A stretch of 64,000 nt of DNA. Source: a virus. Taxonomy: Duplodnaviria > Caudoviricetes. Made by a program: the position numbers. Location: positions 1,383-65,382 of IMG/VR virus record IMGVR_UViG_2724679378_000008; one strand, written 5' to 3'. This document shows, piece by piece, positions 54,001 to 57,000 of the stretch (position 1 is the stretch's first letter; every line of letters starts with the position of its first letter).

Positions 54001-57000
54001 ATTTAGTGATTTTAAACTCAAATGCGACGAAGCGGAATAGTCACGTGTTCACTACCTCGTTTTTTCATTGTTCTACTACTACATTAAGTTATTTGTGAAA
54101 AATTTCACATGTAGGAATGATTAAAAGCTCTTGTTTTAGTCAGATATTTACTCAGCATTTCCATGAATCTGCTCAATGTATCGCCCGCGTCCATCCTCAT
54201 TATCCAGACCCGCTGGTATTAATGCCAGCGCTTCATTCTGACTCAGTTCCTGTTTTTCGTAATACTGGATCGCGTTCTGTGCCCAGGCATAGCACAGGGA
54301 GTGGGAGCATATTCCCTCACCAGTCGAGCATCGCGGATGTGGTTATGTAAGTATCCCAAATAATCGTTTCATACGCTTCTAGAAGACTTCCGACATAAGG
54401 ATTAGGTTACCTAAGAGCGAACTTCCGCTACTCGCTCATAGCGAACCTTATGACCTTGCTTTTTGTCTGCTCTGTGCCAGGAGCGGACCTTATAAACATT
54501 GGCGCTGACAGTAAAGCGGTACAGAGTCGGTACGATGAACTGATTTTATGCTAAATATGAGTGGTTGGAACACTATAACGGGATGAAGTGGTAAATGACT
54601 GGCTTAATATTCGTTTAAAGTTTTCCCCGTCTGAGTCGATAAAAGTGGGATCAACAAAAACGCAAGGTGATGCTCATGTATGGAAAACTGGCCATTACGG
54701 GAATAATGGTAACGTTGTTGAGTGGATGTACGGCGGGGTTTAGGCCTTCGTTGGAAGACTATAAAGGTTCAGATGCAGCCCGGATTCGTGCTGCATCTGA
54801 TGGCAATACAGCTCTTCAATTTTACGAAAAACAGGCAAGTGGTTGTTATAAAAAAGTTCTAGAACGCCGGATTACTGCTGGTTTGGCTATTATCGGTATT
54901 CCTGTCACAGGAAATAAAAAAATCGGAATGCCAGAGTCATCTAATAACAAGGGCATTTTCATAAATGAATTTACTATCAAGCCGGGGCAACTGGTGACGG
55001 TAATTCATTATTGGACCCAGGCTGGGTACTATCAAAATACAGTACAGTCTACCTCCGAGAGATTCATTCCTCAGCCAAATCATGATTACGATATCGTCGT
55101 TACTGGCTCGGAATTTTCCGGAGATAGCGTATCGGTAAAAGATCTGGATTCAAACGCTAAGATAGTGGGATGGGAAGGCGAGTACTGCCCCTCTGGTATG
55201 TTAGATTGATTGCATGACGCAAGTCACTGTCTGTACGAAAATAATCTGGTCCAGCCCACCCAGGAGTGGGCTTTTTCATACGGGCAGTGAACGAACAAAA
55301 AGGGAAAGAATGTGCGTGCAGAAATGAAGGAAAAAATCATCAGGACGTGTGAGGCTAAAATCGCGGCCAAGGGCGGTAACGTAGGTCTATCTTTCTATGC
55401 TTTTTTTGCTAATAAAAATGAGGATCCGGAACTACTCATGGAGGTTGCGCATTGGTGGATTATGGAGATGAAGCTGGATCACTTTGAAAAGGCTGAAAAG
55501 ATAAAATCCCTCGTTCTAGCCATATAGCTGGACATTCAGACTACGTAGCTTTTGGACCTACAGAGGGGCATCATTCGGATATGATGGTTAACCGATTTGA
55601 TATCTGGTCAACTGAACTCAAGATGCCTTGTAGTTCTTCTCTTCATGATCCTATGGCACCCTTCATGCAGGGTCGGTAGGTCTGCACCTCGCTCACGGCG
55701 GACCTTCAGCGCCACGTGCTTGTCTGCTGTGTGCCAGGAACGGACTCAATGTAATGCTATCCATCAAATCCTTATTCAATGCGTTCCACATTTGGATGAC
55801 GCTCGGTTGCGGCTTCATGGAAAATGTCACCCAGCCAGCCGGCAATCTCGCCTTCCGTCATATCGTCTGGTATAGCGATGTCATAGAGTCGAGAAAACTT
55901 TCTCTCCGTCAGGTCAGCACGAAATACCAGCCATCGTTCATTCTTACGTTGAACGCCAATATGCCGCCCAAAAACGTTATATATCAACATATGCAATCTC
56001 CGATCATACTAATGAATCCCTGAATCTATGATATATACGTCAGAGCAGGCCAGCGAGTAAATCGTACATATATGAAAGGCCAACGTCCGCTGTTCGCTCT
56101 TAGTTGACGACCAGACTAAGTAACTATTAATCCATATTACAGCATCAATAATTATTTGAGGGCGTCATTCACAATGACGAACAGAACTAATAACAGAATA
56201 AATCCGATAATACCTAAAATGATACTCGCGTTACTGTCCATGTGCATGTTTCCTTTACCTGCCAGTAGGTAAGCAGCGATAACAAAAGGAATGCAGAGAG
56301 CGGGGTGGATGGTAATCATTACGGCGGCCAGTATTAGGCTGACTATAAATAGTGTCGATGTCATGTTTTCCTCATTTTAGCGGCCGAACTTTCCCCGAGA
56401 ATTTTCGAAATAGCTGATAATTATATGATCATGTTGATCTTTTAAAGATGGTGTTAAACGCATGCTAAAGGTCATAACTCTGATTATCTTATTGTTTTAT
56501 ATAGATAAAATTAAGAATTCTCACCTTTAGGAATCGTATTCGGTCTCTTTTTATCTTACTGATTTTGTTGACTTTTTTCCTCTCCGTCCGAAAATGTCCG
56601 AAATTTGTCCGAAATCTTGATACTCGGCCTAAATCTCAACCCACTCATTTTTACGTGAATCCAGGTATACATTCGTCATTTTCATCGATTTGTGTCCAAG
56701 CAATTTCTGTGCAAATTCCTTACCGTATTCCGCTTCATAAAGACGAGATGCCAGACTGCGGATCTCGTGAAAACTGGGCGGGGATACTTCCGAAATGCGG
56801 CAGCGCGGCGGTCGATATGTCTATTTGACCAAAGCGGCAACGTCCGAGGTGTGGTGGCCTGAAGAAGCAGATCATATTACATTCATTCGCGGCAGAAATT
56901 GGTTCTGAAGTACCTGTATGGTTCCGTCCCGAAGATCGCACTCAGGTAGCCTGTAATGCCGAATTTGGCGCGGCTGTAGCCATTTTTGATAAGGAATGGC

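Follow-up and report, generated by a model that had tools for sequence, protein, structure and literature searches.

A 64-kb window of viral DNA, bases 1383-65382 of the 65,382-base virus record IMGVR_UViG_2724679378_000008, contains an array of 24-bp palindromic sites of two kinds, A and B, which alternate with unrelated small genes. Two-site, like-with-like cassette exchange at A and B is the best account of the patterns described below, and it is put forward with moderate confidence from the way in which site sequences and cargo are distributed. The main uncertainty is whether the exchange has a dedicated enzyme or whether recombination over short homology suffices. The window itself holds two adjacent brackets, partly decayed, that lie between a complete lambdoid prophage and the remnant of a second prophage.

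Each site is built of 7-bp arms flanking a 10-nucleotide (nt) asymmetric centre. A reads GTCCGCT-NN-TCGCTCA-N-AGCGGAC, with the core TCGCTCA, and B is an inverted variant of A that reads GTCCGCT-NN-TGGCACA-N-AGCGGAC on the opposite strand, with the core TGGCACA; only two fixed positions distinguish A from inverted B. The whole window was scanned with GTCCGCTNNTSGCWCANAGCGGAC at up to three mismatches. Exactly five sites were found, all within the array, and none appeared in any of 100 dinucleotide-preserving shuffles; the B pattern alone was found twice against zero expected by chance. Both A-to-B spacers in the window are exactly 18 bp, and the two A-B units begin 1257 bp apart whether measured from A or from B. 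The window copies are partly decayed. The preliminary description of this stretch had pointed to paired 24-bp palindromes with these arms, centres and exact spacers, separating small unrelated genes in mixed orientation, and both the sites and the genes are as it had them; the inverted relation of B to A is an addition to it. The genes are a lipoprotein-like open reading frame (ORF) with a DUF6500 ORF, a minus-strand DUF7661 gene of 74 amino acids (aa) and a 70-aa membrane ORF.

Gene content in close relatives of the window changes at these sites. One contig of a related organism spans window positions 51500-54479 and 55687-56392, and between them 1872 different bases stand where the window has the 1207-bp cargo 1; contigs with replaced cargo were seen in relatives X3 (side 255) and X14 (side 29). 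The left switch at 54479 is position 15 of B1, where the core ends. On the right the backbone match restarts at 55687, which is position 8 of A2, and the homology of the cargo-1 copy stops at 55695, so that the A2 switch falls within positions 8-16, the core. Cargo 1 (54465/54474-55695) is present on other contigs of the same relatives, with a one-letter difference in X17. Another relative contig joins 55736, position 15 of B2, to 56112 and skips the DUF7661 cargo. Contig cover of the relatives is incomplete (X2 has none over 52202-53840, X17 none left of 54308), and these gaps carry no evidence. The coincidence of gene-content breakpoints with the elements had been set beforehand as the check on their function, and the breakpoints do coincide, at B1, A2 and B2.

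The DUF7661 cargo recurs at 85-88% identity in five further contexts, on plasmids of Rahnella, Pantoea and Duffyella, and a six-way alignment of its contexts shows homology that begins at B and stops at A. Similarly, 64 plasmids match a 6.5-kb Pantoea agglomerans array with match ends that coincide with sites, and a Pantoea plasmid missing two modules retains one intact A-spacer-B joint. When the window stretch was compared with E. coli genomes and a phage collection, only DUF6500 fragments matched. The suggestion that the elements are recombination sites bounding exchangeable cargo is thus borne out by breakpoints at sites in the relatives of the window, the six DUF7661 contexts, Pantoea megaplasmids and phages.

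The placement of the switch within a site was mapped by pairwise comparison of half-sites, in which a site is divided into an inner half of 9 nt on the cargo side, a core of 7 nt and an outer half of 8 nt, and two cargos count as the same at no more than 2 mismatches in 40 interior positions. For different cargos on the same backbone, outer-half differences were 0.20 for A (197 pairs) against a background of 1.35 and 0.67 for B (375 pairs) against a background of 1.61, and the inner halves were at background level. Conversely, in 13 distinct B pairs with the same cargo on different backbones the inner half was free of differences, whereas the core had 5 and the outer half 21. Two cargos common to lambdoid and P2 slots have outer halves specific to the backbone and inner halves specific to the cargo, and the placement of the switch in the window's relatives agrees with the same pattern. 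Outer half-sites thus go with the backbone and inner half-sites with the cargo, a division that places the exchange in or beside the 7-bp core.

The two site types seem to be kept apart. The 111 modules compared yield 61 pairs of similar cargo, and in every pair both members face the same way with respect to B->A, with no case of inversion; of 304 sites, only 7 have a core that is neither A-type nor B-type. With only two positions to tell A from inverted B, the absence of inversions and the scarcity of other cores argue against recombination between A and B. At several sites in four genomes of a 401-genome sample the usual arms enclose a third core, TAGGCTCA, which may be another site type.

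Beyond the window, at least 125 stretches of bacterial genomes contain the exact A pattern; they come from a wide range of Enterobacterales genera and also from Idiomarina and a Pseudomonas plasmid. The exact site is present in at least 129 IMG/VR viral contigs, mostly as single B...A modules. With up to three mismatches allowed, 8, 5 and 18 copies are present on three Rahnella/Pantoea megaplasmids, against 0 for a control pattern. Copies are clustered and co-oriented in five genomes. In [Erwinia] mediterraneensis, 11 of 12 sites lie in one 22-kb stretch just downstream of icd, where the chromosome (~3.11-3.14 Mb) carries at least 10 site-bounded modules directly after purB-mnmA-nudJ-rluE-icd; the 3' end of icd is the attachment site of a prophage (e14) in E. 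coli. All 19 sites of P. agglomerans are on a single contig of 511,735 bases, taken to be a megaplasmid. Of 401 genomes sampled evenly across the order, 35 contain at least one site (up to two mismatches), and the maximum per genome is 17.

The sites follow a regular grammar. At the fetched loci an inverted B follows A after 14-19 bp, most often 15-16 or 18 bp, and 219 of 270 consecutive site pairs form either a B...A module or an A-spacer-B junction. Spacers of 14, 15, 16 and 18 bp make up the classes in 116 distinct units, with a weak consensus within each length class. The 112 distinct modules measure 367-3632 bp (median 1209, the upper bound being limited by locus size) and hold 1-4 ORFs, which lie either way round (95 vs 70). 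An AAY is conserved on the cargo side of both A and B. The cargo includes GNAT acetyltransferases, short-chain dehydrogenases, aldo-keto reductases and MFS transporters with LysR or AraC regulators, as well as ars genes, immunity proteins, AbiTii and PIN proteins; many modules bring their own LysR, AraC or TetR regulators.

The arms of individual sites covary modestly. Arm pairing is 83.5% vs 79.1% in shuffles (reached by 0 of 500), and double arm changes number 12 vs 5.5 (reached by 1 of 500), both statistics being subject to relatedness among the sequences. Single-strand folding of the window copies is weak (z of -2.0, -0.4 and +0.2, with canonical copies at -4.9 and -3.7). Across 116 units there is no covariation between the two sites of a unit: 122 of 348 variable positions match vs 133 under the null, and shared arm deviations number 4 vs a null of 5.4. 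The A-B units of the window also fold no better than shuffles. A long A:B hairpin, either attC-like or REPIN-like, was rejected on these grounds.

The same arrangement is found in phage P2 (NC_001895), where fun(Z) is enclosed by a B with 1 mismatch, directly after gene G, and an A with 4 mismatches, ahead of FI; these mismatches are scored against a consensus derived from the window's family, from which the window sites themselves deviate by 1-3. In all 7 other P2-like phages fetched, B lies right after G and A right before FI, around six kinds of cargo, one of which, a NUDIX+HAD cargo, is common to P24C9 and 11W. The module of NUDIX and HAD hydrolases in a Rac-like lambdoid phage is 99.5% identical to a stretch of the P2-like phages P24C9 and 10W, and the phage-to-phage match (2501-3991) begins precisely at the first base of B and stops where A ends. 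A second cargo likewise occurs in both the lambdoid and the P2 slot. In three related lambdoids, the same pair of B and A sites encloses a different cargo in each phage; of the lambdoids Evi and Tritos, one has a regulator with an acetyltransferase and the other an FRG-domain protein. A fourth lambdoid has no sites at the same slot.

The window sites belong to the same repeat family as the brackets of P2 fun(Z), and in both cases cargo is exchanged between phages and bacteria. The window copies differ from those of P2 in their location in a lambdoid prophage remnant, in forming two adjacent brackets with A-18 bp-B pairs, and in their partial decay. As separate observations, the backbone just outside the bracket of P2-like phages is itself an inverted repeat (..AATCTGACA before B and TGTCAGATT.. 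after A), as if part of an older palindrome, and the lambdoid slot has no such flanking symmetry outside B and A. The nine cargo-side bases after B in the window (CTTATAAAC, 54489-54497) recur in the fun(Z) cargo of P2 (NC_001895), the genes being different.

For the P2 fun(Z) slot, cargo exchange of this little-studied kind has been published before: according to a passage of PMC8987985, Nilsson et al. 2004 reported inverted repeats on either side of fun through which site-specific recombination can take place. In PMC9122126, a study of P2 hotspots, Nilsson 2004 is cited only for 'two variable loci', recombination near cos is merely speculated upon for the other P2 slot, and the words hairpin, inverted repeat and palindrome were not found. 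The lambdoid slot, the megaplasmid and chromosomal arrays, the two core types and the core-localised exchange are reported in no paper reached by literature searches. None of six 15-16-nt site strings was present in the literature text, and the literature on Pantoea/LPP-1 repeats and on morons, hotspots and inverted repeats gave nothing on the sites beyond citations of Nilsson 2004.

In the proposed mechanism, A and B would be two versions of one 24-bp recombination site, in which inverted arms of ~9 bp surround a 7-bp asymmetric core. B and A would bracket self-contained cargo in inverted orientation, and the cargo would be moved by two like-with-like exchanges (B x B and A x A) in or right beside the cores. 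Any locus bracketed by B...A could then swap its contents with any other, with no excision or inversion. Where brackets lie side by side, A from one bracket and B from its neighbour would make up the 66-bp A-spacer-B pair. Catalysis would be provided in trans by a dedicated or host-encoded site-specific recombinase.

Several points weigh against this mechanism. There is no recombinase in the 40-kb Erwinia array region, and none lies consistently near the sites, where 137 adjoining ORFs give 2 resolvases, 1 IS3 transposase and 1 IS66 fragment. A common plasmid-borne tyrosine recombinase was considered and rejected, as two megaplasmids each have one and the types are unrelated; one of the two resembles, on our reading, a phage or island (P4-type) integrase. 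Exchange confined to an identical 7-bp core is also what recombination over short homology would be expected to produce. The half-site pattern is less clean for A, where 13 distinct pairs with the same cargo on different backbones have 14 inner, 5 core and 16 outer differences and the inner halves are identical in 5 of 13. In one Pantoea event the switch falls instead within a 4-nt microhomology at the very inner edge of A. Moreover, the half-site pairs are not independent events and their counts describe a pattern, not a test statistic, and the contigs of the window's relatives represent alternative arrangements, not ongoing recombination events. Finally, a Rahnella aquatilis plasmid has a copy of cargo 1 (88% identical) without any sites; its homology stops 36 bp and 100 bp inside the window's bracket, and the copy is therefore uninformative about the sites.

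The strongest competing explanation, possible though less probable than enzymatic exchange, keeps the same sites and the same swapping of cargo and dispenses with the dedicated enzyme. A conserved stretch of 24-27 bp would act as portable homology for RecA, Red or RecT/RecE, the palindromic arms may stall replication or be cut as hairpins, and the better spread of cargo with well-kept sites would alone preserve the sites. Such a process would fit the lack of any recombinase that co-locates with the sites, their presence on P2-like phages, lambdoid phages, megaplasmids and chromosomes, and the RecT- and YqaJ-type recombination proteins encoded by the window's own phage. Breakpoints that fall at a site edge in microhomology, outside the core, are also as it would have them, and modest arm covariation is expected if hairpins matter. 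Still, general recombination should invert cargo and make hybrid cores, and the similar-cargo pairs and core counts given above show no inversion and few other cores. The switches of B sites concentrate at the core, and both loop sequences are conserved across bacterial families, beyond the need of structure or homology.

Far less probable is that the B...A units are cargo-carrying miniature transposons with terminal inverted repeats and a transposase acting in trans. The exact B-to-A extent of the phage-to-phage match is what a transposon would leave, but the outer half-sites remain with the backbone and not with the cargo, no target-site duplication was seen in the junctions read, and no transposase-bearing unit occurs among the 137 neighbouring ORFs. 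The arrays are, in addition, co-oriented, with spacers fixed at 14-19 bp.

Slightly less probable again is a family of repetitive extragenic palindromic (REP) sequences, such as those of BIMEs or REPINs, spread by a RAYT transposase and serving a structural or mRNA-stabilising role, for which the link to cargo boundaries would be incidental. The arrangement, with two types of GC-rich palindrome that alternate in orientation and are joined by short linkers, does resemble that of the Y and Z REPs of BIMEs. Unlike such elements, the A/B sites are low in copy number, as the 401-genome sample indicates, clustered in accessory DNA (the Erwinia stretch and the P. agglomerans contig) and common to several bacterial families. 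They are also without a RAYT link: of 5 genomes with sites, only 2 have the Y1 transposase family PF01797, and P. agglomerans lacks it. No bias to the 3' ends of genes is evident, as starts and stops are about equally frequent beside the sites (61 starts vs 49 stops on the B side, 50 vs 60 on the A side). The absence of covariation between the A and B of a unit and of any Rfam match at the sites points the same way. A match to a REP or MITE family had been named beforehand as an outcome that would count against recombination sites; the REP, attC and transposon readings all fail.

The preliminary description had also noticed a decayed Integrase_1-like recombinase at the left of the array. The remnant is indeed there and keeps only ~63 C-terminal codons; an intact 291-aa homologue on Salmonella plasmids is a tyrosine recombinase with PF12835 (238 bits) and PF12834. 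It belongs, however, to a separate DNA block that is unrelated to the sites. Window positions 52088-54356 form a block 80.4% identical to Salmonella plasmids, in which the remnant travels with a 624-aa gene (52100-53974, minus strand; GC 29-34%, no Pfam match) annotated as 'membrane protein' on IncHI2-type plasmids. The homology of the block stops 66 bp before A1, and the Salmonella IncHI2 plasmids that carry the block have no site within 14 kb. The idea of an integron-like capture system served by this gene is the least probable of all and largely refuted, for despite a remnant 66-80 bp left of A1 with a genuine tyrosine recombinase as its intact homologue, PF12835 passes the cut-off in 0 of 5 site-rich genomes or plasmids and P2-like and lambdoid phages carry sites with no such gene nearby.

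The broader analogy with integrons, drawn at the same time, holds only loosely. Like integrons, the arrays string together small accessory genes that are unrelated to one another, the imperfect inverted-repeat sites between them all point the same way, and gene content varies exactly at the sites, so that the notion of cargo-exchange sites stands. The sites are not attC, as had been recognised: they lack the RYYYAAC/GTTRRRY ends and end instead in GTCCGCT...AGCGGAC. They also conserve sequence rather than fold, and A and B do not covary. Integron cassettes are mostly promoterless and in one orientation, whereas A/B cargo comes with promoters and regulators of its own and comprises 1-4 ORFs, which may point either way. 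An integron cassette has one attC, whereas A/B cargo is bracketed by two different inverted sites. No intI adjoins the arrays, the Erwinia region having no recombinase and the window only its unrelated Integrase_1 remnant.

The pdif modules of Acinetobacter plasmids, which are Xer-dependent, offer another comparison. They too are accessory modules between short inverted sites, with no recombinase gene inside. A/B sites are unlike the XerC/XerD 11-6-11 consensus when compared by eye, and A/B arrays have two sites per junction in place of the one shared site of pdif. A working analogy is engineered cassette exchange with incompatible lox or FRT sites, where two sites that differ only in their cores flank the cargo, like sites recombine, and neither inversion nor excision occurs; the A/B system would be a natural counterpart, its likeness drawn from sequence patterns only.

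The features of the array and its surroundings are listed in the table.

Table. Features of the A/B site array and its immediate neighbourhood (window coordinates).
Feature	Position	Strand	Remarks
Integrase_1-family C-terminal remnant	54154-54342	-	Context only, outside the site system
Inverted A-core fragment GTTACCTAAGAGCGAAC	54406-54422	-	Abuts A1 head to head; 88% complementary to 56092-56108
Site A1	54423-54446	+	2 mismatches; TTCCGCT AC TCGCTCA T AGCGAAC; core intact, arms weakened
18-bp junction spacer 1	54447-54464	.	Between A1 and B1
Site B1	54465-54488	-	1 mismatch; left bracket of cargo 1
Cargo 1	54489-55679	+	Lipoprotein-like ORF and DUF6500 ORF
Lipoprotein-like ORF, 180 aa	54667-55209	+	Cargo 1
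Terminator-like hairpin	~55250-55279		Cargo 1
DUF6500 ORF, 71 aa	55312-55527	+	Cargo 1
Site A2	55680-55703	+	3 mismatches; right bracket of cargo 1
18-bp junction spacer 2	55704-55721	.	Between A2 and B2
Site B2	55722-55745	-	2 mismatches; left bracket of cargo 2
Cargo 2	55746-56084	-	DUF7661 gene plus its upstream region
DUF7661 gene, 74 aa	55772-55996	-	Cargo 2
Site A3	56085-56108	+	3 mismatches; right bracket of cargo 2; 3' arm degenerate; no B after A3
70-aa membrane ORF	56152-56364	-	Right of A3; context only, no detectable site brackets it

The inverted A-core fragment, which lies at the truncation point of the integrase, may be the scar of an aberrant event at an A site on the left edge of the array. 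At window 56012, just upstream of the DUF7661 start, another strain (run X2) has a 16-base insertion, a tandem TGAATCCC repeat. A scan of 51000-60000 with Rfam (E<=1) gave three sub-threshold matches at chance level and none at the sites; one of the weak matches found with Rfam, to the small RNA IsrM at 51681-51847 (minus strand), scores 20.8 bits against a gathering score of 376 and is probably due to chance.

The left part of the window is a complete lambdoid prophage, with an integrase arm domain, RecT, YqaJ and a CI-type repressor identified by Pfam and structural genes assumed to lie in between. It closes at the right with a 2714-aa ORF (43021-51165), in which three near-identical internal repeats of ~45 aa each are GELRLHHGKPFPNEKVARFTKWAKMPGAVIEPVGDGFGVRLP-like. 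The right part is a piece of a second lambdoid late region, with Pfam matches to DUF1367, Q antiterminator, lysozyme and Rz. The low-GC 624-aa gene, the integrase remnant and the site array occupy the space between the two prophage parts.

The variable slots of temperate phages are mined for anti-phage defence genes, and the turnover of their content is largely unexplained. Here, one short DNA grammar ties together the fun(Z) slot of P2, a lambdoid slot and the arrays of accessory modules on plant-associated megaplasmids and chromosomes. It is tentatively proposed, at somewhat lower confidence than the exchange itself, that enterobacteria and their temperate phages share a natural two-site exchange system, in which a probably host-encoded recombinase would swap defence and accessory genes via incompatible cores; the P2 fun(Z) slot, the lambdoid slot, which lies between the replication genes and Q, and the long co-oriented arrays in Pantoea, Rahnella and Erwinia would then be docking points of one network. 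The presence of the sites in P2 and in E. coli phages makes the question of the enzyme testable in standard laboratory strains, and the B-cargo-A grammar could support an automatic search for mobile cargo and its boundaries.

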